Part shown: positions 1,301 to 18,276 of the stretch, in pieces
Layout: each line of letters opens with the position of its first letter
Numbering within the stretch: position 1 is the first letter of the stretch
NCBI GenBank assembly: GCA_045863855.1
Contig: BTVV01000122.1
Location: 1-18,276, forward strand
Direction of reading: 5' to 3'
Length of the DNA stretch: 18,276 bases
From: Planctomycetota bacterium
GTDB taxonomy: Bacteria; Planctomycetota; SZUA-567; H5-PLA8
Position numbers and translations under genes: made by a program
Notes under the pieces: generated by a model
Told to the model about the DNA's origin: nothing
Databases searched by the model: none
The model's input: the letters and a program-made list of their open reading frames with translations, nothing else

Positions 1301-1756
1301 ATGAGATTGCAGGAGATCATGCGGACCGAGGTTGAGAAAATTGAAGCTGAGCGGCCCCTGGAAGAAGCTTGGTCGATCTTCGCGCGCCGAAGAATTCATC
1401 ATCTCGTAGTCACACGCAATGGATCCGTCGAAGGAATTCTCTCTGAACGCGACTGCGGAGGACGCCGCGCTGAGATGCTCGATAAGGGCAAGCGAGTGGC
1501 CGATGTTATGACGAGGCGGGTCGTGACGGCGACGCCCGATACGACGATTCGCAAAGCCGCGAACTTGCTGCGTGGACACGCAGTGGGCTGTCTGCCCATC
1601 GTGGAGAAAGGCAGACTGAAAGGAATCGTCACCTTCACCGATCTGCTGGAATTGCTCGGACGTGGAACCATCGTCCCGCCGCGCTCCTCCGAAAAACAGG
1701 GCGTGCGCTATCTCCATGCGAGGAAGAAGCCCCTACCTCGGAACCGATCCGCCTAA
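1301..1756 (+). CDS. CBS domain pair protein (151 aa; possible alternative in-frame start at 1154)
   Basis: SD AAAGGAG precedes ATG 1301. Two CBS repeats: LQEIMRTEV...IHHLVV...GILSERD and VADVMTRRVVTATPDTTIRKAANLL...GCLPIVE.GRLKGIVTFTDLL. Confidence 0.9.
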   Translation: MRLQEIMRTEVEKIEAERPLEEAWSIFARRRIHHLVVTRNGSVEGILSERDCGGRRAEMLDKGKRVADVMTRRVVTATPDTTIRKAANLLRGHAVGCLPIVEKGRLKGIVTFTDLLELLGRGTIVPPRSSEKQGVRYLHARKKPLPRNRSA

Positions 1757-1796
1757 GCGTCAGATCCGGACCCGCGATTGGGAGAGTGCAACTATC

Positions 1797-3065
1797 ATGG
1801 TACGCACCCCGGCAACGATGGTCGAACGAGCGGTACCGATGGGTTTCCACGCAGTTGCGTATCGCTCAGGGCGCGTGGGGTCTGCCCTGCTTATTAGTCT
1901 CTTGTTGGCCTTGGGAGGCCCAGCGATTGGCCAAGACGGTGATCTGAATCCCGATGCCGACGCTCCAAGCGTTCAAAAGTTCGATTCCGAAGAACTTCGC
2001 AGCCTGCTGGCGCCCCTCGCGTTGTATCCAGACGCTTTGCTGGCCCAAATCTTTCCCGCCAGCACCCATCCGCTGCATATTGTAATGGCCCAGCGGTTCC
2101 TCGACGCTGGCGGCGATTCAGCACACCCGCCCGCAAACGCCCATTGGGATGGCAGCGTAGTGGCCTTGCTTTCGTTTCCCACGGTACTGAAGCGCATGTC
2201 CGACGATCTTGAATGGACCGAAAGACTGGGCTTCGCCGTGACGTACCAGATGGAGGAGGTAACCGACACCCTCCAGCAGATCCGCGCAGAAGCGCATGCT
2301 GCGGGAATCCTGCCATCCAACGATAAGCAAACCGTTATCGTGGAGCATGAGGTCATTCGCATTGTTCCGGCCGAGCCCGAGGTTATCTACGTTCCGGTAT
2401 ACGACCCTGCAGTAATTTTCATTCGGCATGACCGTTGGGAACCATTCATCATATTCAGCCTAGGCATTCGCTGTGGTTTCTGGTTCTTCAACGATTTCGA
2501 TTGGCGGCATCGCCGCATCTATGTGCACCATTTCTGGCATGCTGGGCGCTGGGTGCGCCCCAGCTACCCCTACTGTTGGCGGCCCCCCGTGCGTCCGATT
2601 AACAGGTGGCAACTGCGTGATCGAAGGTGGATTCCCTCGCCACCTGTACGTCCGGCAATACCGGCGCCGACGCGTCCCATAGCGCCCCTGAGGCCGAGCG
2701 TACCGGCTGCGCCTGTGAACCCTCCTCGCCTGCCGCATCCTGCCACGCCCACTCGTCCAACGCCGCCTTCCCGTCCGGCTGTAACGATACAACCCGCGCC
2801 GCCAAGTCGGCCGCTTGGGACTCGGCCACCTGTAAGACCGCCTCTACGCCCGACCGAAGGATGGGGAACAACCCGGCAGCAGACGACGCGGGAGTCGAAT
2901 CGCGGTGCAAACAGCCGGACGGGTGAAATCCGACCGGTTCCGGCGCCGCGAACTATTCATCCCGCGCCATCGCCTTACCAGTTCAGGCCGCAAGACAGGC
3001 GCGGCACTCAGCGTGAATCGCAGCGCGGCTCGTCCAGCCGTGGCGGCACTAGACGCGGTCGGTGA
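1797..3065 (+). CDS. DUF3300 family exported protein with Pro/Arg-rich low-complexity tail (start uncertain: 1797, 1818 or 1839)
   Basis: Family motifs LLAPLALYPDALLAQIFPASTHP, WDGSVVALLSFPTVL, WTERLG and IRIVPAEPEVIYVPVYDP. Hydrophobic signal-like segment SALLISLLLALGGPAIG. Lies directly upstream of DUF2950, the usual pairing. Confidence 0.9.
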   Translation: MVRTPATMVERAVPMGFHAVAYRSGRVGSALLISLLLALGGPAIGQDGDLNPDADAPSVQKFDSEELRSLLAPLALYPDALLAQIFPASTHPLHIVMAQRFLDAGGDSAHPPANAHWDGSVVALLSFPTVLKRMSDDLEWTERLGFAVTYQMEEVTDTLQQIRAEAHAAGILPSNDKQTVIVEHEVIRIVPAEPEVIYVPVYDPAVIFIRHDRWEPFIIFSLGIRCGFWFFNDFDWRHRRIYVHHFWHAGRWVRPSYPYCWRPPVRPINRWQLRDRRWIPSPPVRPAIPAPTRPIAPLRPSVPAAPVNPPRLPHPATPTRPTPPSRPAVTIQPAPPSRPLGTRPPVRPPLRPTEGWGTTRQQTTRESNRGANSRTGEIRPVPAPRTIHPAPSPYQFRPQDRRGTQRESQRGSSSRGGTRRGR

Positions 3066-3105
3066 CGCCGTATTTTGATCGGCACAAGATTAAAGGAGAT
3101 TGAGA

Positions 3106-4074
3106 GTGACCCCCATACACCACTCCGCATGCTGTGCATGGCTTTCGACCTGCGCCTTGGTATTCGTACTTAGCTTGGCGACTGCCATAGGTAGCCGGGC
3201 AGGCGAAGTCTCGAGCGACGTATTGCGACAGCGGGTCTTCGATACTCCGGCGGCTTGTTGCAAAGCGCTCCTCGATGGATTCCAGAGCAACAACGACGAA
3301 GTTCTGCTGGACGTGTTGGGGCACGAGCACCGTGACCTGGTCGTGCAGTCCGACAAGGAGGCGGCGAAGACCATTCGGAAAAAGATCTACGATCTGGCGC
3401 AGGAATCCTTGAAGTTCGAGACCACAGGCGACAGGAGCATTGCGATTCTTGGGCTCAAGGCGTGGCCATTTCCCATTCCTATGCTCAGGCAGCAAGGGAA
3501 CTGGGCTTTCGACACTGCGGCCGGCAAGGAAGAAATTCTCAATCGTCGCATTGGCCGCAACGAACTTCGAGCCATCGACTTCATGCGCGCCTATCCGGAG
3601 GCCCAACTGAGATACGCCGCCGTGGATCGTGACGGCGACAAGGTGTTGAAGTACGCCAAGCGGCTGATCAGTTCGAATGGCGCGCAAGACGGTCTTTATT
3701 GGCCTACGGTAGCCGGCGTGCAGGCCGAGCCAAGCCCCCTGGCGCCGATGATCGTGGATGATGGCGCGTTCTTGGATGGCGACGGCACCAACATTCCCTA
3801 CCACGGCTACTATTTCAAGGTGCTGACCCGTCAGGGATCGCACCCACCCAATGGCAAGTACGACTATGTGATTAACGGAAACATGATCGCGGGCTTCGCG
3901 CTCGTGGGCTGGCCCGCGGACTACGGCACCTCAGGCATCATGACTTTTGTGGTAAGTCATCATGGGCTCGTCTACCAGAAAGACTTAGGGCGCGAAACGG
4001 AAAAGGTCGCACGCAAAATGGATCGCTATGACCCGGACGCGAACTGGGCGGAGGTTGAGTCCGAGAGGGAGTGA
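3106..4074 (+). CDS. DUF2950 family exported protein
   Basis: SD AAAGGAG (3092-3098) lies 7 nt before GTG 3106. Motifs WPFPIP, FDTAAGKEEILNRRIGRNEL, DGLYWP, PYHGYYFKVL, GFALVGWPADYGTSGIMTFVV and VYQKDLG. N-terminal hydrophobic segment. Confidence 0.92.
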   Translation: MTPIHHSACCAWLSTCALVFVLSLATAIGSRAGEVSSDVLRQRVFDTPAACCKALLDGFQSNNDEVLLDVLGHEHRDLVVQSDKEAAKTIRKKIYDLAQESLKFETTGDRSIAILGLKAWPFPIPMLRQQGNWAFDTAAGKEEILNRRIGRNELRAIDFMRAYPEAQLRYAAVDRDGDKVLKYAKRLISSNGAQDGLYWPTVAGVQAEPSPLAPMIVDDGAFLDGDGTNIPYHGYYFKVLTRQGSHPPNGKYDYVINGNMIAGFALVGWPADYGTSGIMTFVVSHHGLVYQKDLGRETEKVARKMDRYDPDANWAEVESERE

Positions 4075-4978: not shown

Positions 4979-6109
4979 TTACTTGCCCTGAAAGGAGAGC
5001 AGCTTCGTACGCGCCGGCGTATGCCATTCGGCGTTAAACAGGCCCGGAGCATCGGGGGTAGGCAGCTTTTCTTGACTCATGTCGCGCGAAATAGCCGCGG
5101 CCATGGCGCGATGATCGTATGCGACCAGTTGCGTGGGACTTCGCACTCCTTTAAGCGCCTGAGGCATCTCGCTTCGAAAAATCATGCAGGGTGCCGAACG
5201 CATCACACTCGCAAGCCGTTCTGGTTGCCGACGGCAGAGTTGCATGTACCAGTAGTCCCGTTCGAAAACGAGGCCCTCGTCCGGTCGTACGGCCAGCGCC
5301 TCGAGGTACGTTTCAGGCTTAACCCGGCCCCCAGGTGCGTATCGCACGCCGAATCCTTGTGCGCGGAGCAGGATTTCCAGTTCGTCCGGCTGGTTTGGAA
5401 TTTGTACGGAACTTGGGCATGGCACCAACGCCGACGAGAGACCCGCTTCCCGCCACTCGCGTAGCGCCTGCAACAAGGCGGCCGTTCGATCCAGGCGGTA
5501 CGTGGCGGGAAAAGGCGACGCCAAGGCGTCGATCGTCACGACCCGCAGGCCGGCATCTGAAATCATGCTGACCGTGTTGCGATCGGCTTCCGCGGGGCAG
5601 AACCAGATCAAGAAATCCAGACTACGCCTTAAAATACCGCGCAGGAACGAACGCCTAATCTCCTGCCCTTGGGAGTAAAAGATAAAATTCGCCACGAAGG
5701 ACTGGTGCCGGAGATCCTCTTCAAGGGTCGTGAAAAAGGTACGCCATTCGGAGTACAGCAAAAAACCCGGCAGCCAGATCGGAATGCCGACAATGCCGCG
5801 AACGGTCGAACGTGCCTGGGAGCGTCGCGAAGGGATTTCCGTGGAACTGCTGCGAATCGTGACCAACCGCCCTTCCCCGCGCAAACGCTCGTACGCTCGA
5901 GCGACCGAGCGAAGCGGCACGCGGAAAAACGCAGCCACGTCGCGTAATGCGTAAAAGGTACGCGGGCGAGTGCGCCGCAGTCGTCCCACCGCTGCGCGCA
6001 GGTGCTCCTCGAGCAGCGCCTGCCGGTTGGCTTCCGGTGGAAAGCCAGTGAAATCGGTGCAAGCCTGCGCAAGCGGAGGCAGGTCGCGGGAAACTCGTCG
6101 GCGCGCCAT
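4979..6109 (-). CDS. Transcriptional regulator: GntR-type winged HTH plus probable LacI/periplasmic-binding-protein-like effector domain
   Basis: FYALRDVAAFFRVPLRSVARAYERLRGEGRLVTIRSSST fits the GntR wHTH. It is followed by GIVGIPI...FFTTLEEDLRHQSF, resembling the start of a LacI-type sugar-binding fold. Divergent from the giant-protein operon. Confidence 0.75.
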   Translation of the reverse strand: MARRRVSRDLPPLAQACTDFTGFPPEANRQALLEEHLRAAVGRLRRTRPRTFYALRDVAAFFRVPLRSVARAYERLRGEGRLVTIRSSSTEIPSRRSQARSTVRGIVGIPIWLPGFLLYSEWRTFFTTLEEDLRHQSFVANFIFYSQGQEIRRSFLRGILRRSLDFLIWFCPAEADRNTVSMISDAGLRVVTIDALASPFPATYRLDRTAALLQALREWREAGLSSALVPCPSSVQIPNQPDELEILLRAQGFGVRYAPGGRVKPETYLEALAVRPDEGLVFERDYWYMQLCRRQPERLASVMRSAPCMIFRSEMPQALKGVRSPTQLVAYDHRAMAAAISRDMSQEKLPTPDAPGLFNAEWHTPARTKLLSFQGK

Positions 6110-6115
6110 GCAACC

Positions 6116-6144
6116 ATTATGTATACATTGTGTTTCTGCCGCAA
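6116..6144 (-). promoter_or_regulatory. Sigma70-type promoter for the regulator, with an overlapping palindromic operator
   Basis: The minus strand reads TTGCGG (6144-6139) - N17 - CATAAT (6121-6116) - 6 nt - ATG (6109). The perfect palindrome ATGTATACAT (6119-6128) overlaps the -10 element and spacer. Confidence 0.65.
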
Positions 6145-6215
6145 GGGTTCGCCGTCCGGACTATACAGTGGAACGCCGCGAGTCGGCAGGCGCGGTCATC
6201 CTGAAGGAGTCCTCC

Positions 6216-9200
6216 ATGCGTACTACAGTTCTGTGCTTCATTCTGCTACTTCTTACCCTGCCTACACTTGCGGCCGATAAACCCAAACCGGAAGGTGGCA
6301 AGAAAGCCAAGGAACGCCGCGCTCAGGAAGCCGAACCGGTGCCCCCGCCCGGCCCCCAAATTCTGCTCCCGCTGGGCCGAAGCGCGTACCAGACCAACGA
6401 ACGAGTCGATCTGGCGTACCTCCGCTACGGTACGGAAGCACTTCCCGCCGGTACGCTGGAACTCCAACTGTCCGGCCCTGCGGGCAGTGCGTTCGAGACA
6501 TCCTTCCCAGTGGAAGCCGTACCGGCCGCAACCGGTGCGGCTCAGCGGACCGAACACTTCCGACTCGACGCACGCTTGCTGCGTCCCGGCGCGTACGTAG
6601 CTACGATCCGTTGCGACGGCGCAACCCAACAGCTCGCCTTCGATATCCACTCGCACATCCGCAAGACCAGCTTTCGTATCATCGATTGGGGCGGCAGCGG
6701 CAACGGAGCCGATCAGGTGCGCTGTGGCGAAGAAGGCACCGGCATCAACTTAATGCTCGCTTCGGCGGCGGGGCACGACCAGAGCGCGAACATCCGTGGC
6801 GGTATGGATTACATGCGCAACTGTACGATGGGCGGCGGGCACCAGATGGATCTGAACCGGAACAACGACTGGTCGGACCCCTACGTGCTGACCGGCGGAA
6901 TGGCTCGCGTGGCGCGCCAAGCGCTACGAGACCGGACTAGCGGGAATACCATCGGCGTACACTTCTACGACGAACCAGGGCTGACCTGGCTAAAGCATCA
7001 CCGCACCGGGATCGACAGCCCCAACAACATCCCTTCCCAGGATTGGGCCTATAAAGCCACCTTGGGCGAAGAGCCCGTTCAATACGACACGATCGATCCC
7101 TTAAAGCCTGCCGACGTCGACGCTTGGGAACGCGTGCTGCGCCAGAAACAGGTCTACCTCGAAGCCGGGTGGCGCATGGGACGCTTCGCCGTCGAATGGG
7201 TCGATCCGCGGCTGCTCTCGGCGACCCAGAGTATGTACGGGTGGCTGGCGTACGGCGACGGCTACTACTTCAACGTCACGCGCTCGCTTCCGATCAATAG
7301 CGGACACGGCGGGTACGACGATCTGGCTGGTGGATTCCTCGCCCCGGGATTTTTCTATGAATTCGGACGCATGCGCGATTACGCAAAGCCGGCATGGTAC
7401 CTCCCGCATTGGTGGGACCAGACGGCCTCCCCGCTCTTCCGCCTCGAACAGTACCTCACGTTCATGACCGGCGTACAGGGCATTGCCATCCCGCCGGGTA
7501 CGCGCACCGAATCGCCCGGTACAGGCAATCAGGACGACGGCATGTTGGAATCCAACCGGCTGATGGCGCGGCTGGGCACGATCTTCCATGCGATGCCGCT
7601 CACACGTCCGCACGTAGCGATCCTATATTCCATGTCGCAGAACGCGCTGGCCAGCGTACGCAGTGAAAATCTCATGCTCACCCAGGACTTCCCTGGGCAG
7701 GTCGAGCGTCTGCTGATGATGTACGTCGCCGGCAAGATGGCACACCAGCCGCTCTTTCCCATCGTGGAAGAGGATGTCCTGGATGGGACCCTGGCCGCGA
7801 ATCATCGCGCCGTGATATTGACAGGCATCGAACGACTGGATTCCAAAGTGGTCACGGCATTGACCGCCTATGCCGTGGCTGGCGGGCACGTCTGGCTCAC
7901 CGACGATTGCAAGATTGACGTTCCCGGATCTCGTCGCCTAGGTGCCGAGACGCACACCAAGATTTACGAAGAAGCCCAACGCATAGTCCGCGACGAGACG
8001 ATTAATCCGCTCTTGCGCCGCAACTTGGGCTGCGCCGCGCGCAGCGCCCAAGCGTACTACCGTGCGTGCGGGCCGCTGGCCGAGGCGCTGAAGCAACGCT
8101 GCGTCGAAGCCGGCATCGCACCGGTGCTCGAGTGCGATCATCCGCATGTCTTCGCCACTCGCCACGCACAGGGCGACGTCGAATATTTCTTCCTGGCCAA
8201 CGCCAATTCCGACAACGACGAAGTAAAGGAAGGCCGTTTCAACGCAACGCGTCCGGCGCGCGCGAAAGTGGCGCTGCCTCATGCGCAAGGCGCGCTGTAC
8301 GACGCGGTTCGCGGTGGGCCGGCTTCCGAGTTTACGCCGAACGATGGTAAACTCACGGCCGATCTCCGCTTCGGCACCGGACAGATGCGGGTCTTCGCGC
8401 GAACCGCCCGGCCGATTGGCGCCGTCCAGGTTTTTACGCCGCTGGTACGAGCCGGTAACTACGCCTTCGACCACGTCCCGCCAGTGGCTCTGGAACTGCA
8501 AGCCGTCGTCCTCGACGACCGCGGTCAGGTTTTAAATGGCGCGATTCCGCTCTCCGTGCGCGTAACCGACCCGCTTGGCGATGTGCGTTTCGACCTGTTC
8601 CGCTCTACCGAGCAAGGGGTCCTTCGCATCCAGCTTCCCTTAGGCGTTAACGACGCGTCCGGCACTTGGCGGGTGGCGATCAAAGAGTTGCTAAATCAGA
8701 AGGAAGGCGAGCAGACCTTCGTCACCCAGTCGCCGGCGCAGTGCGGTGCGCTGCTGGGCGCCACCCGCCGAGCGGTTTACCTCCCGGCCGACGAGGCCAA
8801 CATGTTCCGCTTTTTCCGATTGCATAGGAGCGTGGCGCTGGTCGTGGGCAATGCCGAATACCATAAAACGCAAGCCGAGCGGCTCGCGGGAACACTGGCG
8901 CGCTGGAACATCGCCTGCACGGTAGTCCCGGCTGCTTCGCTGAAGAAGAAGGAACGAAATGCGGAGATGAAGAAAACATGGCCGGGCGCGCCAGGGCATC
9001 CGGATCTCGACATGCCTGGCGAAGCCGCGATTCTCTTCGGAGCGCCGGAAGACGATACGCTGATCGCGGCGATGTGCCCCACCGCCAAAGCGCCCAAAAA
9101 CTTGGCGCCCTACACTCCCTTGCGGGACTGTTACCCCGGCCGAGGTCGCGGGATGCTAGCGTGGCAGGTCGAGGCCCTAGCCTATTCCAAATACGAAAGT

Positions 9201-10604
9201 ATCGCCTGTATAGCCTACGACGCCGAAGGCATGGCCGAAGCCGTCGGCACACTCTGCGAAATCGCCAACGGCTACCGCGCCGCGACGGATACGATCCTGC
9301 CCGGCAAGGCGCTCTTGAAGCCGGCGCATGTGCCTGCATCTCTTGCGCCCGCACTGCGCATCGAACGGCTCGCGGCACTTCCCGACCGCGCCGATTACCT
9401 GCAAGCTCTTCCCGACTCGACCTTGCTAGCGGCCTCGTGGAGTGGCTGGATACATAAACTGAAAGCCGATGGCTCGTTTCAGAGCGAACACGTATTGCCC
9501 GGCGCGACAGAACCGCTCGTGGCGGCCAACGCCGAAGGCACGGTCTGGGCATCAGCCCAATTCGACCGCTTGACGGTCTTTAAGGATGCGGGCGAAGTGG
9601 TTTTCGAGACTCCGTTGCGTTTCCTGGACCCGCGCCTGCGCCAAATCCGTCCGTCTCCAGCCAGTGTCGTGGCCGTCTCGGCCGACGGAAGTTTGATCGC
9701 TGCGGGCACCGAATCGGGTCATTTGCGGCTCTGGGCGTCCGACGGCCAGGAACGCTTTGCCTATGGAGGCGCGAACCAGGACGAATACGACAAGTATTCC
9801 ATAGAGCGTAAGGCGTTCATGGCGGTAAAAGCCGAACGCGACGCGAAACTCAAATTGTATAAAGAAGAAATGGAGGTCTGGATTAAAGCCGACGCCGCCT
9901 GGCAGCAGGCTCCCGCCGAAACGCGTGGCGCTCGACCAAAGAAGCCCGCTCCGGTTCCCAAAGGTCCCCAAGCGCCGCGTTTCGATACACCCGAACCGTG
10001 CCACCGGTTGATCTTTAGCGCCGACGGCTCACGCCTGCTTGCCAGTTTCGAAAGCTACACGATCGTTGTCGATACGAGATCTGGAAAACTGCTTGCCGAA
10101 CTGGCCGATACGGCCTGCGCGCGCCCGGATCGCATCGGCGATGAGTTCGTCCTGCTCACGCAAGCCGGCGAACTAGCGCTGCTGACCGCAGACGGCGCCG
10201 TAACTTCGACGCTGCGTGTGCTGCCCGAAGGCGAAGGTCAGACCGCCAAACCCGGCCAGCCGCTGCCGGATACGCTGCTGGGCGTTTGGCCCATCGGCGA
10301 CGGCGCGCTAGTGGCCAGCCATCAGGGGCGCGTCTGGCGCTTCAAAAAGCCGAGCGGCGAAGGTTCGTCGACTCCGCTTTGGGAAGACCGCTACCCCGAT
10401 CGCTTAGTGAAATTCGTAGCGCCTGGTGCTTCGTGCGCGGCCGTAGCCTATTGGGGCGGTACCGTGCGGCTGCTCGACGGCGGAACCGGAAAGCTACTCG
10501 CGTCGCACACTTTCGAGCAGGACGTGGCGGCGTTGGCCGGCACGGGTTCGCGGTGGACCGTTGTCCTGGCGGACGGCCGAGTCTATGCGCTCAGCGCGCC
10601 GTGA
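6216..10604 (+). CDS. Giant secreted protein A (1462 aa): Ig-like, glycoside-hydrolase-like barrel, GH42-trimerisation-like, Ig/MG2-like and WD40/PQQ-like beta-propeller regions
   Basis: SD GAAGGAG precedes ATG 6216; signal peptide MRTTVLCFILLLLTLPTLA-AD. GH-like motif GVHFYDEPG; segment VAILYS...AVILTG...GGHVWL like GH42 middle domains; propeller blades VAVSADGSLIAAGTESGHLRLW, LIFSADGSRLLA and VAYWGGTVRLLD. Confidence 0.75.
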   Translation: MRTTVLCFILLLLTLPTLAADKPKPEGGKKAKERRAQEAEPVPPPGPQILLPLGRSAYQTNERVDLAYLRYGTEALPAGTLELQLSGPAGSAFETSFPVEAVPAATGAAQRTEHFRLDARLLRPGAYVATIRCDGATQQLAFDIHSHIRKTSFRIIDWGGSGNGADQVRCGEEGTGINLMLASAAGHDQSANIRGGMDYMRNCTMGGGHQMDLNRNNDWSDPYVLTGGMARVARQALRDRTSGNTIGVHFYDEPGLTWLKHHRTGIDSPNNIPSQDWAYKATLGEEPVQYDTIDPLKPADVDAWERVLRQKQVYLEAGWRMGRFAVEWVDPRLLSATQSMYGWLAYGDGYYFNVTRSLPINSGHGGYDDLAGGFLAPGFFYEFGRMRDYAKPAWYLPHWWDQTASPLFRLEQYLTFMTGVQGIAIPPGTRTESPGTGNQDDGMLESNRLMARLGTIFHAMPLTRPHVAILYSMSQNALASVRSENLMLTQDFPGQVERLLMMYVAGKMAHQPLFPIVEEDVLDGTLAANHRAVILTGIERLDSKVVTALTAYAVAGGHVWLTDDCKIDVPGSRRLGAETHTKIYEEAQRIVRDETINPLLRRNLGCAARSAQAYYRACGPLAEALKQRCVEAGIAPVLECDHPHVFATRHAQGDVEYFFLANANSDNDEVKEGRFNATRPARAKVALPHAQGALYDAVRGGPASEFTPNDGKLTADLRFGTGQMRVFARTARPIGAVQVFTPLVRAGNYAFDHVPPVALELQAVVLDDRGQVLNGAIPLSVRVTDPLGDVRFDLFRSTEQGVLRIQLPLGVNDASGTWRVAIKELLNQKEGEQTFVTQSPAQCGALLGATRRAVYLPADEANMFRFFRLHRSVALVVGNAEYHKTQAERLAGTLARWNIACTVVPAASLKKKERNAEMKKTWPGAPGHPDLDMPGEAAILFGAPEDDTLIAAMCPTAKAPKNLAPYTPLRDCYPGRGRGMLAWQVEALAYSKYESIACIAYDAEGMAEAVGTLCEIANGYRAATDTILPGKALLKPAHVPASLAPALRIERLAALPDRADYLQALPDSTLLAASWSGWIHKLKADGSFQSEHVLPGATEPLVAANAEGTVWASAQFDRLTVFKDAGEVVFETPLRFLDPRLRQIRPSPASVVAVSADGSLIAAGTESGHLRLWASDGQERFAYGGANQDEYDKYSIERKAFMAVKAERDAKLKLYKEEMEVWIKADAAWQQAPAETRGARPKKPAPVPKGPQAPRFDTPEPCHRLIFSADGSRLLASFESYTIVVDTRSGKLLAELADTACARPDRIGDEFVLLTQAGELALLTADGAVTSTLRVLPEGEGQTAKPGQPLPDTLLGVWPIGDGALVASHQGRVWRFKKPSGEGSSTPLWEDRYPDRLVKFVAPGASCAAVAYWGGTVRLLDGGTGKLLASHTFEQDVAALAGTGSRWTVVLADGRVYALSAP

Positions 10605-10629
10605 ACCGGCCATTCGGAGGGAGCTTCGC

Positions 10630-13600
10630 TTGATTTCGCGCGTGCGTCCTAACTGTCGACTCGCCATGATCTTGGGGGCGTTCGCTTCGGCCGCGCTGGC
10701 GGGCGCGGAAATGGAGCGCATCGAATCGCTGGAGTCGCCCCAGTTCGACCCTGAGCGTGCGGTACTGCGGGTTGGACGTGACGGACGCATCTGCTTGGCC
10801 TCGCCGAAGGAGCTTGAGCAAGGCTACGTGTTGCTTATGGCGCCCGACGGTTCGAATCGTTCCGGTCGCGAACTGGGCGCGTCCTTGCACATGGTCACGT
10901 CCAACGCACGCGGGGAATTCGGGGCATGCCACCATTCGTGGCAGAGTTCAGGACTGGCGACCTACGACGCATCAGGCGAGCCGGCGGCGAAGAGTGCCGG
11001 AAAGTACACGCAGGTCGAAGCCGGGGAAGCAAGCGGCGACTTTTACTTCCGCAGGGAAGGCGAGATTGTGCGCGTTGCGCCGGACGGGCAGGAAGTGCAT
11101 GCCTACTCGCCGCCGGGTGCTCTGTGGGGCCAGAAGCCCGCGGCCTTCCGGGTTCACGAAGGTTCCGAAGCGTTTTTCATCCTGGCCCAGGACCGCAAAA
11201 TTCATTGCGTAAGTTTCGACGGAGCCGAACGCTGGAGCGTTCCCGCGCCCTTTAACCTGCATACCGTACTCGCTCGCTGTGCGTTAGACCTCCCATTCGA
11301 TGTGGATTCGGATGGCACGCTCTACGTCTACGACCCCAAGACCTGCGCCGTTCAAGTCTATGCCGGCGGCGACGAAATGGGCGGGCCCGAGGCCCGTGGA
11401 TCGGTCAAACTCCCCGCCGAGCAGCTTGGTCCCAGCCCCGCCGCCGAGAAACAAGGCGTGCTGCAACTCGCCGTCGCGGGCAGCGACCTCCTTGTCTGCC
11501 GGCGGGTGCGCACCGACCCCGGCGAACTTTTCCAGCGCTACGAACTGAAATCAGGCAAGCTCCTGCAAACGATTTGTTCACAAACCCTGCGCTTGAAAGC
11601 CGAGTACGCCGAGAACGTTTGGCGAGCCGGGCAAAGCATACCCTTTACGATACGCGCGATGCTCGGCGCCAATGCCTGCGCGCCGCAGTGGCGCGTCTAC
11701 GCAGCGCCCTTCGGTTCCACCGCTTGGCAGGAATTTCCATGGTCCAACGACCGGCTGGAACTTCCGGCCGATGCCAGCGGGCTGTATAGGCTTCGCGTCA
11801 CTGCTTCCATCTCGCCGCGCCCCTTTTTCACCGCGGGCAAGGACATGCCTGCCGACCTGACCCTGGAAGGCGCCGTCGAGATTCGGCCGCCGCAATCCAA
11901 CGGTTCGCTCAGCGTGTACACGCCGGCCAATCGCGAAGCCTATGCCCGCGGGGAATCCATTCCCTTCAGAATCCTGGTGCGCGCCGCGGATCCCAAACCG
12001 CGCAAGGCAAGCGTGGTTCTGCAAGCCGGCGCGCAAACGCTGCACTCGTGGTCCCTCGATGTGCGGCCCGGCGAGTCGGCGGCGCTCGAACTGCCCTCTG
12101 CTTTCACGAGGGTGCTGGCATCGGGGCGTTACGTGCTGTCCGCGCGCGCAGAAGGATTGGCCCCATCCGATCAATACCTCTGGATCGGTCCGGGGCCTTC
12201 CCGTCCGGTTTTTCGCACCCTCGATTACCGGGACTACGGAGAGTTTCAGGACCGTAAGTCCGCGGCCCATTTGTGGAACAGCGCCGACGCGGCCGCCGAA
12301 GAAGCCGCCGAACAGCGCCGGCTGGGCCGCTCCCTGCTGGTCCAACGCCTGGGCGTGTCGCCCACTTCCGGAGATCCTTTCGTCTGGAAGCACGAGCACC
12401 TCGCGCTGCTGGACAGCCTGCGGCAGCGCTTGGCCGCCGACCCCTTGGCTGCCGCGCCTGAAAAAGCAGACCTTGCGCCGCCGCTTGCGCAAGCCTTGTC
12501 CCAGTTGGGCGCGCAGGGCGTCGAACACATGTCGATCCTGATGAACAACGATGCCGGCCTGCCGCTCGGCACCGGATACGACAAGCGCAAGCCCGATGAA
12601 CTGCTGGCTCAACTCAAGGCCGTGACCGCATACGTGAAGGAGTTCCCCGCCTTCCGCGGCTGGACGTGGGCCGCGAACTGGTGGGTCTTTGCCAAACGCG
12701 GAGCCAAGGCTGCGCGCACGCCCGAAGAACAGGCGGCCTACAAAGCCGCGCTGGAGCGTGCTCAAACCACCGGCGCCTGGGATCCTGTCCTCGATACGGT
12801 CTGCGACGTTCGCCTGAGGTTAGCCGTGGAGGCTCAGGACCTTTTCAACGCCGCGTTGCGCGAACTGGCGCCGAAAGCCGTGACCGCCGTCTCCGGTCCC
12901 TTCCGCAACGTGGAGTGCTACCCACCCGTCACTTTTAGCAATGTGGACGAAGTGGACTTGCAGGCGCAGTTCGAGCAGATTTCCCTGCCCTATCATGCGG
13001 CCTTCGCGGTCGATTTTTACAAGCGGCCGGGCAAGGACGTGCTCTCCCATCCCGAACTGGGCAACGACCTCGGCACCGGCGATCAATTCCTGCCCAACTC
13101 GTTTATGAGCATCGCGCGCGGTTCGAATTCCTCGGGCTTCGCCAGCGGATACGGCTACCGGGAACCCGATCCGCGCACGAATCAAGGTGGCTGCCCAAGC
13201 ATCCAGCGCGCCTTTTTCCCTCTCATGGAAAGCCTAGGGCCCTGGCTTGCGACGCTGCACGACGACGACCGCGTGGCCATCGTCGCCTCCGCACGCATGC
13301 TGAAGACCGACAAGTGGCATCGCCTGACGGGGTTGCACTTCGGACGATTGTTCGAAGCCTGGGTCTCCTGCATGTTTGCGCATCATCCAGCCCGCATCGT
13401 TTTCGCGGAGGATGCGAACGCAGATCTGCTGGCGCGATACAAAGCCATCCTGGTGGTCGACCAGCGCTTCGAGTTGGAGCCGGGGTTGGCCGGCGCACTG
13501 AAGGCCGCGCAAGCGAAGGGGGTAAAGATCTTCCACGATGCCGGCTGCCTTGAAGCGGCAGTCAAAGGATTCACGCCGCTGGGCTTCGCATTCAATCGGT

Positions 13601-16032
13601 TCGAAAACGATCCCTCGCCTGCCGGCGACGACGCCGCATATTGGCGCATGCCGCAGTGGGCCAAGACGCATGCCAACGCGCTTCGCAAAGCATTGGCGGG
13701 TGCCGTCGAACCCATCGCGGAACTGGACGCGCCCGAAGTATGGGTCACCGCGCGTGCTGCAGGCGATGCGCGCTTTCTGTATGTCGTCAATCACACTCTG
13801 CCGCCGCTGCCCCCTGAGCAACTTTGGCGCATGAGTCTCTACCTCACGCACCGGCTACCGTTGACCATCCCGTTGCACACGGATGCGCAGGGCCGAGCGG
13901 TCTACGAGCTATTCGCTCAAGATCAGATCCCTGCCAAGGACGGTACACTGCTGGCCGATTTGCGCGGCGTTCCCGGCCGGATTTTCGCGTTGCTCCCGAA
14001 ACCGATCGGCGGCGTGCTGCTGCGCGGTCCCGAGCGGGCGCGAGCAGGCCAAGCCATCGCCTGGAGCGCCCAAGCCCGTGGGGAAGACGGTGCGCCGTTA
14101 AATGCAAGTCTTCCCCTCCTGCTTCGCCTGCTGGACGGCAGCGGTCGGACGATCGAAGAGCGCCCCGCCGTCTCCGGCCAGATGGCCGCACAAGGCGAGT
14201 TTACGGTCCCTTGGGGCTTCGAAGGCACATCGGTCACGCTGGAGGCACTCGAGCGCTTCAGCGGCAAAGCCAGCCGGTTGGTGATCGCCGTGGAACCTGC
14301 GGCCGATGCGTTTGCGGAACTTCCCGCGGCACCGGCCGCGCGAGACGGATCGCCCGACGCTTCACCGCGGCCCGCTCCCGAAACGGCTTTCGGTCCGCAC
14401 CTGCGCGACGTGGCTGTTTCCAGCGACGGCGCGACCCTGCTGATCAATGCTTTCAACTGGGATCGCAACGTGTACTTGATGGACGCGGACACCGGCGCCA
14501 CCAAGGCACAAGTTCGCTTGGGGCATTATTTCGCCTTTGAGCCCCAAGCGCTGGGGCGCGGATTTGCCGTACGCGGTTTCGATTTTAAATCGCCCGAAGG
14601 CTATCATTTGTACCTGCTCGGTTCTGACGGTGCGGCCGAGCGGCGTTTCGCGCTCCCCGCGTATCCGAAGCGCTTGCCTTGGCGCCACCTGCCGACGTTG
14701 CTGCGCGACCGCATCGACAATTTTGCAACCGCGCCGGACGGTTCTTGGGTCGCCGCCGCGGGCGACTTGGGACTGGCCGTTTGGAACCGAGATGGCGCAC
14801 TGCTCTGGAGTCAGGAATGGTGGAAGTCCGAACGCCGTGACGTCCGGCTTTTCGCGCCAGACGCCAAACTCCTATTCGTGATCGGCGCTTCCAGACTGGA
14901 ATCGTACGAGGCATCGAGCGGTAAGCCGCTCCAGCCGCCGCTCGACCTGGGCGGAGTCGGGGAGGTAACGGAGGTTATCGCGACTCCAGACGGCCGTACG
15001 CTCGCGTTGGGCGCGCCGGGAAACGGCGGGCAGATTTTGGTGCTTCGCGATCGTCAGATTGTGCTGCGCTACCCGTCGCCCTTCAGCGAAATGGCACTCT
15101 CCCCCGATGGCACGGCCTTGGCCGTAACGCGCATGGACAGTCTGCAGTGGGTTGCCATCGAACAAGGGCTGCGCTGGACCTACCGCGGCGATGCCCCGCT
15201 GCGCGCTCCTCGCTTCAGCCCCGACGGCGCGCGGCTCGCCTGCGCGACGGATCTCGGCACGCTTTGCGTCATGGAACGAGGTGGCCGTGTACTGCTCGAA
15301 CGCGACCTAGGCGCCCTGTGCGTTCCTGCCTGGCTGCCCGATGGCGACTTAGTTCTGGCTTCGTGGATGGGTTCCGTCCAGCGCCTGGACGGCGAGTACC
15401 GGCCGCGCTGGACCACGAATCTAAAGCCCGACACCATCGACCTTCGCACGCGACTGCTTGATCAGGATCCTACTCCCACGACACGCATCGAAACCTGGAC
15501 CAACGCAACCCCGTCCAACGCAGGCCTCACGCCCAATCTCCTGGCCGCGTACTCAGTGACCTTAAAATCATCCTGGGGCAAGCCCCTGAACCACGAACCC
15601 GAACTGCTCTGGGATGGGAAAGCCGACTCCGCCTCCGATCCATGGGTCGATTACTCGATTCTTTCGCACCAAGCCAAATCCGGCCCGCCGCCGCATATCA
15701 CCCTGTCCTTCAATCAGGACAAGGTACGCGTGACCGGCATCGCCATGTTCGAAGATCCGGCGCACCCCGCCTCGTGGCTGCGTGACTGCTCGATCGAAGC
15801 GTGGGACCTGGAGAAGAGTATCTGGGTGCGCGTGCAGGATTGTCTTTCGAACGCGGCACAGCATACCCATCTCTTCGCCAAGACCGTGGAGACGAATCAG
15901 ATCAGGCTGGTGTTACCATCTCTGAGTTGCGGAAACATGCGGCTGACCGAGTTGGTGTTGCTCGGCGAGCGCGTCGGGCCCTATACGCCACCGGGCAAGA
16001 AACCCAAAAAGCGCGGCAAAAACGCACCGTAA
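10630..16032 (+). CDS. Giant secreted protein B (about 1800 aa), paralogue of A, with an extra N-terminal propeller and a C-terminal discoidin/galactose-binding-like domain
   Basis: SD GGAGGGAG precedes in-frame TTG 10630 (alternative ATG 10666); signal-like RVRPNCRLAMILGAFASAALA. Propeller blades FDVDSDGTLYVYD, VAVSSDGATLL, ALSPDGTALAV and RFSPDGARLA. C-terminal F5/8C-like pattern HITLSF...VTGIAMF...VETNQIRL...MRLTELVL. Confidence 0.75.
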   Translation: MISRVRPNCRLAMILGAFASAALAGAEMERIESLESPQFDPERAVLRVGRDGRICLASPKELEQGYVLLMAPDGSNRSGRELGASLHMVTSNARGEFGACHHSWQSSGLATYDASGEPAAKSAGKYTQVEAGEASGDFYFRREGEIVRVAPDGQEVHAYSPPGALWGQKPAAFRVHEGSEAFFILAQDRKIHCVSFDGAERWSVPAPFNLHTVLARCALDLPFDVDSDGTLYVYDPKTCAVQVYAGGDEMGGPEARGSVKLPAEQLGPSPAAEKQGVLQLAVAGSDLLVCRRVRTDPGELFQRYELKSGKLLQTICSQTLRLKAEYAENVWRAGQSIPFTIRAMLGANACAPQWRVYAAPFGSTAWQEFPWSNDRLELPADASGLYRLRVTASISPRPFFTAGKDMPADLTLEGAVEIRPPQSNGSLSVYTPANREAYARGESIPFRILVRAADPKPRKASVVLQAGAQTLHSWSLDVRPGESAALELPSAFTRVLASGRYVLSARAEGLAPSDQYLWIGPGPSRPVFRTLDYRDYGEFQDRKSAAHLWNSADAAAEEAAEQRRLGRSLLVQRLGVSPTSGDPFVWKHEHLALLDSLRQRLAADPLAAAPEKADLAPPLAQALSQLGAQGVEHMSILMNNDAGLPLGTGYDKRKPDELLAQLKAVTAYVKEFPAFRGWTWAANWWVFAKRGAKAARTPEEQAAYKAALERAQTTGAWDPVLDTVCDVRLRLAVEAQDLFNAALRELAPKAVTAVSGPFRNVECYPPVTFSNVDEVDLQAQFEQISLPYHAAFAVDFYKRPGKDVLSHPELGNDLGTGDQFLPNSFMSIARGSNSSGFASGYGYREPDPRTNQGGCPSIQRAFFPLMESLGPWLATLHDDDRVAIVASARMLKTDKWHRLTGLHFGRLFEAWVSCMFAHHPARIVFAEDANADLLARYKAILVVDQRFELEPGLAGALKAAQAKGVKIFHDAGCLEAAVKGFTPLGFAFNRFENDPSPAGDDAAYWRMPQWAKTHANALRKALAGAVEPIAELDAPEVWVTARAAGDARFLYVVNHTLPPLPPEQLWRMSLYLTHRLPLTIPLHTDAQGRAVYELFAQDQIPAKDGTLLADLRGVPGRIFALLPKPIGGVLLRGPERARAGQAIAWSAQARGEDGAPLNASLPLLLRLLDGSGRTIEERPAVSGQMAAQGEFTVPWGFEGTSVTLEALERFSGKASRLVIAVEPAADAFAELPAAPAARDGSPDASPRPAPETAFGPHLRDVAVSSDGATLLINAFNWDRNVYLMDADTGATKAQVRLGHYFAFEPQALGRGFAVRGFDFKSPEGYHLYLLGSDGAAERRFALPAYPKRLPWRHLPTLLRDRIDNFATAPDGSWVAAAGDLGLAVWNRDGALLWSQEWWKSERRDVRLFAPDAKLLFVIGASRLESYEASSGKPLQPPLDLGGVGEVTEVIATPDGRTLALGAPGNGGQILVLRDRQIVLRYPSPFSEMALSPDGTALAVTRMDSLQWVAIEQGLRWTYRGDAPLRAPRFSPDGARLACATDLGTLCVMERGGRVLLERDLGALCVPAWLPDGDLVLASWMGSVQRLDGEYRPRWTTNLKPDTIDLRTRLLDQDPTPTTRIETWTNATPSNAGLTPNLLAAYSVTLKSSWGKPLNHEPELLWDGKADSASDPWVDYSILSHQAKSGPPPHITLSFNQDKVRVTGIAMFEDPAHPASWLRDCSIEAWDLEKSIWVRVQDCLSNAAQHTHLFAKTVETNQIRLVLPSLSCGNMRLTELVLLGERVGPYTPPGKKPKKRGKNAP

Positions 16033-16092: not shown

Positions 16093-16121
16093 CGGCATAG
16101 TGCCCGTGAGTGATAGATGCG

Positions 16122-16331
16122 TTAGCCGGCGACGACGCGCACGCGAGCAGCCTTCGGACCCTTATCGGACTGGACGGTTTCGAACTCGACCGCCTGGCCC
16201 TCTTGGAGGCTCTTGAAACCCTCGCTCTGGACCTCGCTGAAATGAACGAAGAGATCCTTCCCGCCACCATCGGGCGTGATGAATCCGAACCCCTTCTGAT
16301 CGTTGAACCACTTGACCTTACCGAGAGCCAT
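16122..16331 (-). CDS. cspA: Cold-shock protein, CspA family (69 aa)
   Basis: [18 protein letters not shown] (RNP1), DLFVHFS (RNP2), [13 protein letters not shown] and [15 protein letters not shown]. The symbol denotes the family; the exact paralogue cannot be determined. Confidence 0.97.
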
Positions 16332-16412
16332 TGACTGGCCTCCAACTAAATTCTTACGCTTCCTGGCTATCCATCACCACGGACAGATACTAGGCCTGAA
16401 GCATCGTTATTG

Positions 16413-16441
16413 ACAATAGGGTACGCGGGGGCCCGACACAA
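16413..16441 (-). promoter_or_regulatory. Putative sigma70 promoter for csp
   Basis: Minus strand TTGTGT (16441-16436) - N17 - TATTGT (16418-16413), implying a 5' UTR of about 75 nt. Confidence 0.45.
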
Positions 16442-16500
16442 ACGATTTTCCAAATATTCGAAGCTGCGAATTTCCGGCTCAAATCTCGATCCGAGGCCCC

Positions 16501-16540
16501 AAAAAGCCCTGAAAATCGAAGAGAATAGCTTCTTTCAGGG
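16501..16540 (-). terminator. Putative intrinsic terminator ending the E2-DUF2752 operon
   Basis: Minus strand CCCTGAAA-GAAG-loop-CTTC-(3-nt bulge)-TTTCAGGG followed by CTTTTT, about 220 nt after the DUF2752 stop. Confidence 0.45.
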
Positions 16541-16763
16541 GGCAGCCTTGCCACCCCTTATCCACTGCAGCCCCACGCAGGAGAGGTGCACCCTAACAAA
16601 CCACGCCTATTCCAGAGACGTCGATGGCCTTTAGACCAAACGGGCACTTTGCGGTCACGCCACGCATCCAACTGCCTCTCCGAAACCGTGCTTAAACTAG
16701 CCCGATTTTTTGTTCCTACCAACCTTCAAAAAAACAGTTGGTATGAGAGCCGAAATACGAAAT

Positions 16764-17237
16764 TTACCCCAGACTCAGCAGCCAATTTAGTCCCAAAGCT
16801 CCGGTTACGGCCCAGCCTGCGTAGTGCAGCATCGCGGCAACGCGGTTCAAACGTGGATGGCTTGGCCATCGGATCGCGCAAAGGCGATACAGCGCGGCCA
16901 CGGCTAAGAAGAAATAAAGCAAGGGCCCCATCCGGTGGGATTGAAGAGCGCCAAAGAAATCGCCGTGTGTCAGACGCACGAAAGACCGGCTCAGACCGCA
17001 GCCCGGACAATCGAAACCCAGAAGCCGCTGGCTTAAACATAGTGCAGGCATGGTATGCCCTGCGATCGACAGTCCACCGCTCCCGGCTTCGTAACTAAAT
17101 AGCAATGGAGTCAAAAGTAGAACCAAGCAGAAGCAGAGCATCGTGACATGATCGGCGCGGCCCTCGCCGCCGCCCGAATAGCGCAGCGAAAGGCCCCAGA
17201 ACGCCGACCGACGCGCAGGGGGAGAATCACCCTGCAC
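16764..17237 (-). CDS. DUF2752 family membrane protein (start uncertain: GTG 17237 overlapping the E2 stop, or ATG 17141)
   Basis: Family motif C-LSQRLLGFD-CPGCG-LSRSF...HGDFFGALQSHRMGPLL. Three hydrophobic segments: MLCFCLVLLLTPLLF, PLLYFFLAVAALY and AGWAVTGALGLNWLL. Confidence 0.85.
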   Translation of the reverse strand: MQGDSPPARRSAFWGLSLRYSGGGEGRADHVTMLCFCLVLLLTPLLFSYEAGSGGLSIAGHTMPALCLSQRLLGFDCPGCGLSRSFVRLTHGDFFGALQSHRMGPLLYFFLAVAALYRLCAIRWPSHPRLNRVAAMLHYAGWAVTGALGLNWLLSLG

Positions 17238-18138
17238 GCGCGGCTCGAGCTTTCTCGATGCATCCGTGACAGGCAAAATCCTCTTCTCCGCTCTTCATGC
17301 GAACTTTCTTGACGTGGTCCAGGCACGCGCTGGCGCCGCAAACCCGGCACGCCACCAGGCAATCGTGGCAGCGTCCCGCTTCACAGACCGCGCAATGCCC
17401 TGCGTGTTCGGAGCAGACCGCTTGCTGGCATGCCGCGCAGCGATAGCCGCATTTGGCACAGACGGAACGCTTGCAGGTCGAACAGGAGACCAGATCGCAC
17501 TTCAAGCAGGTTAAGCCGCTGCAAACGGGACAGCTCATCACACAATTTTCGCACGCCACGTGCAAATTCGTACACGCCTGCATTTCGCTGGGATCGCCGC
17601 GCTTGCCGCAGTTCGCACACGTGTCGCCCACCACCGCCGAACCGTCTTCTCGCCGCCCCGTCGCTTCGCCGACCGACAGAAGCGCGGAAAAGTCCGTCGT
17701 GTCCAGCGGCAGACGATCCTTGTTCTCCACGGCCCATTTGGCGGCTTCGCCATTCAGAGGGCTCTTGATGTTATAGGACTGAAAACTCAGCATCTCCGCG
17801 ATCCGCACGACCAGGTTGGCGAGCGACTCGCCGGCCGCCCAATGGTCGCCGATGCAGATGGCATGCGGCGCGATATTGGGATGAAAGACCGGGGTCAACA
17901 TGCGGCATTGTGGCGCCATGCGCGGATAGCTGCCCGTCAGCGTAATCTCGATCTGAAACTGATTGCGGATCTGAAAACCGCCGTCGAGACGCTTCTCCAT
18001 GCCCGTGACCAAATACTCGAGCTGATACTTCTCCGGCGGATTTCCCAGGGTCTTCTTGATGCGGATGCGGGAATCCTTGGTGAAGAAACTGCTGAGCTTG
18101 TCGTAATCGGCCTTGAGGCGCCGCAGCCGGACACTCAT
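17227..18138 (-). CDS. Ubiquitin-conjugating enzyme E2 domain fused to a C-terminal Cys/His-rich multi-zinc region (303 aa)
   Basis: UBC hallmarks: helix RLRRLKADY, FQIEITLTGSYPRMAPQCRMLTPVF-HPN-I, Cys95 (codon 17856-17854), downstream W, and SPLNGEAA. Residues 174-293 hold 14 Cys/His ligand pairs. SD GAAAGGGAG. Confidence 0.9.
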   Translation of the reverse strand: MSVRLRRLKADYDKLSSFFTKDSRIRIKKTLGNPPEKYQLEYLVTGMEKRLDGGFQIRNQFQIEITLTGSYPRMAPQCRMLTPVFHPNIAPHAICIGDHWAAGESLANLVVRIAEMLSFQSYNIKSPLNGEAAKWAVENKDRLPLDTTDFSALLSVGEATGRREDGSAVVGDTCANCGKRGDPSEMQACTNLHVACENCVMSCPVCSGLTCLKCDLVSCSTCKRSVCAKCGYRCAACQQAVCSEHAGHCAVCEAGRCHDCLVACRVCGASACLDHVKKVRMKSGEEDFACHGCIEKARAARAG

Positions 18139-18275
18139 GGCGTCTCCCTTTCGGTGAAGCTCAGCCAGCGTTCCTGCTCCCCGGCGTCGAGCAATTTCAA
18201 CAAGGTCATCGTACTGATCGCGAAGCTCAACCCTTCGGCCACCTGCGTATCTTCCGTCAACGTGTTGATTCCCAC
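18135..18275 (-). CDS. C-terminus of a trypsin-like (S1C/HtrA-type) serine protease, truncated by the window edge; not in the ORF track
   Basis: Translates to VGINTLTEDTQVAEGLSFAISTMTLLKLLDAGEQERWLSFTERETP*. VGINT...GL.FAI is the conserved end of the HtrA-type protease domain. Its stop overlaps the E2 start (ATGA). Confidence 0.75.
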   Translation of the reverse strand: MGINTLTEDTQVAEGLSFAISTMTLLKLLDAGEQERWLSFTERETP

Positions 18276-18276
18276 T

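Follow-up and report, generated by a model that had tools for sequence, protein, structure and literature searches.

Prokaryotic RING E3 ligases were reportedly proposed, in the abstract of a 2011 article by Burroughs, Iyer and Aravind in Mol Biosyst, to work with E1 and E2 enzymes, JAB peptidases and YukD-like ubiquitin-like proteins (Ubls). In the accessible part of PMC4197634, related uncharacterised ubiquitylation operons in Actinobacteria, Planctomycetes and Acidobacteria are credited to Burroughs et al. 2011, and the accessible parts of PMC3417536, PMC7159879 and PMC5654768 make the same statement on bacterial ubiquitylation operons in general terms. A compact full E1/E2/RING cascade from Caldiarchaeum subterraneum (Ub-E1-E2-srfp(RING)-Rpn11) was reconstituted in vitro, according to the available text of PMC5654768, and E1, E2 and JAB proteins acting on a Ubl or a target protein are shared by Bil, Bub and the type II cyclic-oligonucleotide-based anti-phage signalling system (CBASS) in what is available of PMC11601596 and PMC11354881. 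The stretch of DNA analysed here (the window, 18,276 nt) is contig C122 in its entirety. It belongs to the draft genome of a Planctomycetota bacterium (6.9 Mb, 287 contigs), and in its last 1.5 kb it carries three co-oriented, tightly packed minus-strand genes: the 3' end of a protease gene, an E2 gene and a gene for a DUF2752 membrane protein. Sequence comparison indicates that these are very probably the last three genes of a ten-gene, membrane-anchored Prok-RING family-1 operon for Ubl conjugation. This identity, taken together with the membrane-anchored mechanism proposed below, is the best explanation of the locus, with a probability of roughly 80%.

The operon and its conservation

The features of the window that belong to the operon are as follows.

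18135-18275, minus strand: 3' end of the protease gene, last 46 codons plus TGA, frame open to the window end
17227-18138, minus strand: E2 gene, 303 codons plus stop
17674-18138, minus strand: UBC (E2) domain, residues 1-155 (Pfam UQ_con)
17230-17619, minus strand: cysteine-rich tail of E2, C174 to G303, with 27-28 conserved Cys/His
16764-17276, minus strand: gene for the DUF2752 membrane protein, 170 codons counted from TTG 17276, last gene of the operon

The visible part of the protease translates to 46 residues (...GLSFAIS...ERETP) followed by TGA. This stop codon overlaps the start codon of E2 in an ATGA (ATG 18138-18136, TGA 18137-18135), and the DUF2752 frame, counted from the TTG, overlaps the 3' end of the E2 gene by 50 nt; co-orientation, packing and both overlaps are as described in the original prediction, made from the letters of the window alone. 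Where DUF2752 starts is uncertain, the sequence ahead of the first membrane helix being unconserved, but in relatives the frame likewise begins at or across the E2 stop. An independent DNA run yielded a 2145-nt contig covering 16374-18276 and continuing for 242 nt past the window end.

The rest of the operon was recognised from L002, a locus in a Planctomycetota metagenome-assembled genome with an E2 99% identical to that of the window. There the operon is contiguous and consists of ten co-oriented genes.

Gene 1: zinc-ribbon membrane protein
Gene 2: YukD-like Ubl, 96 residues, single domain (Pfam YukD, 1.9e-9)
Gene 3: ThiF-type E1 (Pfam ThiF, 1e-47)
Gene 4: JAB peptidase (Pfam JAB, 9.6e-14)
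Gene 5: multi-transmembrane FHA protein (Pfam FHA, 3e-14)
Genes 6 and 7: two Prok-RING_1 membrane proteins
Gene 8: Prok-RING_1/Trypsin_2 fusion (Trypsin_2, 2.5e-20)
Genes 9 and 10: E2 (UQ_con), then DUF2752

Prok-RING_1 was found in three of these proteins with 32.0-38.6 bits (Pfam cut-off 29.1), while none of the ten reached the cut-off of a model in an NCBIfam search. All seven upstream genes were located by tblastn on another contig of the window's own genome, C196, with 84-99% identity to L002 (97% for E1). The protease, here termed RING-HtrA, is divided between the two contigs, with residues 1-397 of 454 on C196 (6685-7875) and residues 409-454 on the window; C196 ends inside the gene and about 11 codons are absent in between. 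As judged from these matches, the operon is cut by the assembly over C196 and C122. The three genes had been proposed to form the distal end of a ubiquitin-like operon, an idea that would have fallen had the genome lacked E1 and Ubl; searches beyond the window located Ubl, E1 and JAB as well as the three RING proteins directly upstream.

Catalytic residues of the cascade enzymes are conserved. The window E2 matched UQ_con with E 6.6e-11 (42.4 bits, cut-off 27), with the HPN motif at 17875-17883 and the catalytic Cys95 at 17854-17856, and the eukaryote-like character noticed at the outset was borne out, H86, P87, N88 and C95 being invariant in 79 homologues. An AlphaFold2 model of E2 (predicted local distance difference test, pLDDT, 89.5) had eukaryotic E2s (UBE2K, UbcH5c, Rad6) as its best Foldseek matches, from E 1.7e-7, and by sequence UBE2A was matched with 1.3e-5, HPN and Cys lying within the alignment. 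In E1, the GAGALG motif, a DNRE stretch, four CxxC-type cysteines and C188 are conserved, as are the metal-motif residues E93, H157, H159, S167 and D170 of JAB; GAGALG and C188 of E1 and the JAB residues each occur in at least 95% of 18-19 sequences. In each of the 23 distinct Ubl sequences listed, a terminal ...EITAG precedes 0 to about 50 variable residues, which in the window's genome are an extra Gly and then APV; such an extension fits a pro-Ubl that would be trimmed by JAB. In two loci the Ubl is fused in frame to E1 (L056, 302-1795, 498 residues; L058, 2340-3815, 492 residues). EITAG is internal in these fusions and release would therefore need a peptidase.

The tail of E2 contains 22 invariant and 5-6 nearly invariant Cys/His within residues 174-293 and is read as about seven predicted zinc sites, that is, a putative rod of tandem zinc fingers. 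Folded alone, it gave a series of short hairpins with a terminal helix (pLDDT 94.2). A Foldseek search against PDB returned nothing at E <= 0.001, the best match being the tandem LIM domains of LMO2 (0.012), and in the VIA wide search the best Z was 5.6, for FYVE-type fingers matched to the final ~55 to 80 residues; no match had Z >= 8, and 5.6 is under the level that the tool treats as meaningful. These matches are weak and generic; therefore no zinc-finger family was named and the tail was not called a built-in E3. Among the 74 E2 genes whose stop codon is contained in the locus, the tail has at least 24 Cys in 52, 12-23 in 16 and fewer in 6.

DUF2752 (PF10825) was matched in Pfam with E 1e-15 (58 bits, cut-off 27). 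Its CPGCG motif lies at 16995-17009, and C80, C90, C93, R97 and F99 are invariant in 31 operon-linked members.

Homologues of the window E2 number more than 3,500 at E <= 0.001, with hosts among the Planctomycetota, Riflebacteria, Victivallales, Sumerlaeota, CSSED10-310 and others. For analysis of the neighbourhood, 6 genome and 80 metagenome loci were picked by likeness to the window E2, and removal of L009, L033, L036 and L051, each with an E2 domain identical to that of another locus, left 82; the counts given here thus describe this E2 family only, near-duplicates remain among the 82, and the presence of genes and domains was scored by coordinate-based tests. The gene order recurs across these non-redundant loci in several phyla. 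Of the 62 loci that reach 400 bp or more upstream, 53 have a trypsin-domain (HtrA) gene directly upstream of E2. Of the 59 that reach 600 bp or more downstream, DUF2752 follows E2 within 900 bp in 28 and within 2200 bp in 35, in some with a RING gene in between, and it is present either downstream or upstream in 44. Where both flanks are long (14 loci), DUF2752 occurs in 13 and the HtrA gene is directly upstream in 13. With at least 7.5 kb upstream (21 loci), Ubl, E1 and JAB are each found in 19 and FHA in 20. Linkage of the three genes is considered more than chance because it recurs in dozens of loci; protease and DUF2752 are recurring partners of E2. One locus, L082, has two DUF2752 paralogues (6582-6995 and 10741-11310) and five RING-bearing genes in one operon.

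In both Riflebacteria genomes (2 of 2) the system is split between two contigs, one carrying Ubl-E1-JAB-FHA-RING-RING and the other RING-HtrA/E2/DUF2752 (L005, L006, L090, L091). As RING-HtrA/E2/DUF2752 stands alone in these split systems, the three genes are a natural sub-module.

Relation to described Ubl systems

As far as Prok-RING family-1 operons (Burroughs 2011) are known through the available statements of citing papers and the abstract of the 2011 article, they have the same parts (YukD-like Ubl, ThiF-type E1, HPN/Cys E2, JAB and Prok-RING_1 fingers with membrane helices) and occur likewise in Planctomycetes and other phyla, with no difference shown. Five features of the type were found in the operon: a UBC-fold E2 with HPN and Cys, a ThiF-type E1, a small beta-grasp Ubl with a conserved C-terminal glycine, an intact JAB and membrane-anchored RINGs. 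The union of an HtrA-type protease and a DUF2752 protein with a bacterial E2 had been put forward as an arrangement not recognised from known systems. Instead, it is the regular architecture of the widespread Prok-RING_1 family, computationally predicted in 2011, apparently without bench work, and is not new; novelty was judged against what the accessible parts of citing papers and the 2011 abstract state. In the literature searched, no experimental study of the operon and no mention of DUF2752 were found. Added here, from comparison of the loci, is that DUF2752 is a core part of the operon, that the sub-module is kept in split operons and that the Ubl has a conserved EITAG end.

The Caldiarchaeum operon, as presented in the available text of PMC5654768, is like the window operon a compact prokaryotic cascade, and its JAMM peptidase removes the tail of the pro-Ubl and also deconjugates, a further likeness. 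Its Ubl is ubiquitin-like with a di-glycine end, whereas the Ubl here is YukD-like with an Ala-Gly end. Unlike the archaeal operon, the one described here has several RING paralogues, all RINGs and JAB are predicted to be membrane-anchored, and an FHA membrane protein, the HtrA fusion, DUF2752 and the zinc tail of E2 are added.

The resemblance of E2 to eukaryotic E2s, to which it is closest, would also be expected of secreted effectors acting on the ubiquitin system of a eukaryotic host, and matches of E1 to ThiF and MoeB models, which stay under the model cut-offs, would agree with a sulphur-carrier pathway of the ThiS/MoaD type. Both alternatives are very improbable: the operon supplies Ubl, E1, JAB and RINGs itself, its products are mostly integral to the membrane, none of the ten genes is one for sulphur transfer or a cofactor, and the DNA runs that contain half or more of the words of this DNA come from bioreactor, sludge, sediment and soil metagenomes. 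Complete bacterial E1-E2-RING-deubiquitinase cascades with a eukaryote-like E2 bear, in turn, on the origin of the ubiquitin system.

A further possibility is anti-phage defence, in which the operon would tag phage or host proteins on infection, as Bil or type II CBASS do, with the protease as effector. Other bacterial operons with E1, E2 and JAB are immune systems, according to the accessible part of PMC11601596, and several PADLOC models were matched at the level of domains (E1 to CBASS E1-E2, 7.4e-11; JAB to a Cap3-type JAB, 1.2e-6; protease to an RT-protease, 2.3e-12). However, the CBASS E1-E2 models match only the adenylation domain of E1, PADLOC has no match for E2, Ubl, the RING proteins, the FHA protein or DUF2752, and it returned no system for the operon. 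Bil, Bub and type II CBASS differ from the operon in their parts. In what is available of PMC11354881, the E2 of Bil has a CEHH motif instead of HPN/Cys. Bil has a two-domain, ISG15-like Ubl and no RING, in contrast to the single 96-residue Ubl and three RING proteins of the window operon. Bub combines a catalytic-Ser E2 with a DUF6527 serine protease (PMC11601596, available text), whereas the operon has Cys95 and Trypsin_2/HtrA and no DUF6527 match. In type II CBASS a fused E1-E2 lies beside a CD-NTase; here E1 and E2 each have their own gene, and the ten products include no CD-NTase.

The distribution of the operon can be read in two ways. Among sampled Planctomycetota genomes, E2 was matched at E <= 1e-20 in 42 of 401 (21 of the 243 of good quality), and 16 of the 44 matches extend into the tail. 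This spread, together with the occurrence in several phyla, is patchy, as expected for a mobile accessory system and hence for defence, yet the sequences are unusually conserved: identity across phyla is 47-78% for E2 and about 70% for the Ubl, which was judged unusual for defence genes. Moreover, no defence genes adjoin the operon, whose neighbours are giant open reading frames, a cold-shock gene and a DUF3300/DUF2950 pair, and a scan of IMG/VR gave five weak E2-domain matches only (29-35% identity), at least four of them on giant-virus contigs. A defence function, one of the roles first suggested for the locus, thus left no sign in PADLOC, in the adjacent genes or in IMG/VR, and it is considered unlikely. 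The operon family is unlike the phage-defence systems studied so far in that nearly all of its products are membrane-bound and one ligase is fused to a protease whose probable place of action is across the membrane.

Predicted membrane topology and proposed mechanism

As only 46 codons of RING-HtrA lie in the window, its domains were judged from the part on C196 and the 96%-identical L002 copy. In the full gene Trypsin_2 and Prok-RING_1 were found. The protease aligned with DegS (1.1e-20) with His, Asp and Ser matched and TNRHV, DVDLVIL and GNSGG in register, and its nearest solved relatives are the periplasmic DegS, DegP and DegQ. It shares with DegS/HtrA the trypsin-fold His-Asp-Ser triad, a membrane anchor and a predicted periplasmic domain, but those proteins have a C-terminal PDZ domain, whereas RING-HtrA lacks one and its anchor is three helices placed after a presumably cytoplasmic RING finger. 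Indeed, no PDZ match was obtained with Pfam in five full-length copies (L002-L006), the protein ending about 15 residues past the protease domain; the original prediction of an HtrA-type protease free of PDZ, which the codons in the window could not reveal, holds for the full gene.

A crude count of hydropathy peaks gave hydrophobic segments for all operon products but Ubl, E1 and E2, in agreement with the membrane association that had been suggested. None was found in the Ubl (18 of 18), E1 (16 of 19) or E2 (33 of 38), one in JAB (20 of 21), three to seven in the FHA protein (24 of 24), two in 32 of 43 and 35 of 41 RING proteins, and one to three in DUF2752 (33 of 33). RING-HtrA has three in 29 of 35 proteins and, in a second count, in 31 of 37. 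In the 26 RING-HtrA proteins that gave three clean peaks, Lys and Arg make up 75 of 390 residues before the first segment, 15 of 319 in the loop between the first and second, 72 of 316 in that between the second and third, and 43 of 390 after the third. Because of the three segments and this positive-inside pattern, protease and RING are placed on opposite sides of the membrane, and the protease domain is probably on the far (periplasmic) side from RING and E2.

This topology bears on the proposal, made when the window was first read, of a tag-and-cleave module, that is, of a cytoplasmic protease cutting proteins tagged by E2 and RING in the same compartment. Such a module would agree with the translational coupling of the protease and E2 genes through ATGA, with their adjacency in 53 of 62 loci and with the fusion of the protease to a RING finger, and in the proteins with two hydropathy peaks RING and protease would lie on the same side. 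The three segments of most RING-HtrA proteins, a charge distribution that fits N-in, C-out, and the periplasmic location of the closest solved relatives stand against it. The predicted separation of RING and protease by three membrane passes, also added here, argues against simple tag-and-cleave, which is regarded as doubtful and decidedly unlikely.

The loop that follows the second helix of DUF2752 carries a strong positive charge (70 Lys and Arg, 11 Asp and Glu); therefore the conserved C...CPxC loop is placed on the far side and probably faces away from the cytoplasm. Docking of DUF2752 on the E2 tail was dropped as a favoured idea, the charge pattern suggesting that the Cys loop faces the non-cytoplasmic side; a prediction of the E2 and DUF2752 complex scored 0.00 and is uninformative either way.

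In the membrane-anchored mechanism proposed for the operon, JAB would trim the Ubl to its conserved ...EITAG end, and E1 would adenylate the Ubl, take it onto the conserved C188 and pass it to Cys95 of E2. The membrane-anchored RING proteins would then guide ligation of the Ubl to targets that lie on the cytoplasmic membrane's inner face, and JAB, anchored by one helix, may reverse the tagging. One RING protein, with three predicted membrane crossings, would carry an intact HtrA/DegS-type protease on the periplasmic side, accompanied by DUF2752, a small protein with three hydrophobic segments whose Cys/CPxC motif is probably also non-cytoplasmic. The role tentatively favoured, though held at clearly less than even confidence, is that the operon would serve to turn over membrane-spanning or envelope proteins or to control their quality, clipping on the outside being coupled to Ubl tagging on the inside. 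More doubtful is a trans-envelope machine in which the periplasmic HtrA, fused via three helices to a cytoplasmic RING E3 and assisted by DUF2752, would recognise or clip a membrane-spanning or envelope protein outside and so couple this to Ubl tagging of the same protein inside.

In endoplasmic-reticulum-associated degradation (ERAD), RING E3s such as Hrd1 and Doa10 are embedded in the membrane, to which an E2 is recruited, and tag proteins at the cytoplasmic face. These ligases serve as a working analogy, no homology being shown beyond the RING and E2 folds, and unlike them the operon comes without a Cdc48-type ATPase or proteasome. The trans-envelope machine, if true, would be a bacterial counterpart of ERAD or DegS/RseA signalling by its logic, though not by descent, and would be driven by a eukaryote-like E1-E2-RING cascade; coupling across the membrane, if real, would be a new bacterial link between envelope proteolysis and cytoplasmic protein tagging. 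The conserved EITAG end of the Ubl, the catalytic C95 and the three-gene sub-module are handles for reconstitution.

Several points weigh against the membrane-anchored Ubl operon as set out here, in addition to the selection of the loci by E2 likeness. Each step of the mechanism is drawn from homology. The topology comes from a home-made Kyte-Doolittle count, not a trained predictor; under one setting 8 of 35 RING-HtrA proteins show two peaks, not three, and the periplasmic placement of the protease assumes a RING that faces the cytoplasm. The protease gene is absent from 9 of 62 loci, most of them with a RING gene directly upstream of E2 instead, and a Planctomycetota locus, L004 (10876-12755), is the sole one without DUF2752 among the 14 with both flanks long, so that neither protein is indispensable to every version of the operon. 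The ten products include no unfoldase, no proteasome and no other machine for degradation, and tagging therefore need not lead to degradation. In L004, genes for a LigD primase-polymerase and a phosphoesterase follow E2 in the place of DUF2752.

Transcript hints and neighbouring genes

A contig from an RNA library (run X16, 162 nt, 5 differences) crosses the junction of the protease and E2 genes and is a weak hint of expression of the operon; to be set against it, the contig could be DNA in the library, and it comes from a related strain. Besides two short X16 contigs, the RNA-library contigs on 16100-18276 (three runs) cover the cold-shock gene only, the uncovered operon being uninformative. 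A scan just 3' of DUF2752 gave no convincing terminator. The gene directly downstream of the operon is:

16122-16331, minus strand: cold-shock (CSD) gene

Near it are a promoter-like site (16416-16387) and a strong terminator-like hairpin (16093-16063). Two giant overlapping open reading frames on the plus strand, 5970-10604 (1544 residues) and 10561-16032 (1823 residues), have only a weak MG2 match below the Pfam cut-off and no Pfam family, respectively; a frame of 376 residues at 4979-6109 (minus strand) also has no Pfam family. On the plus strand, DUF3300 (1662-3065) adjoins DUF2950 (3100-4074), and the pair is preceded by a CBS-domain frame at 1082-1756.

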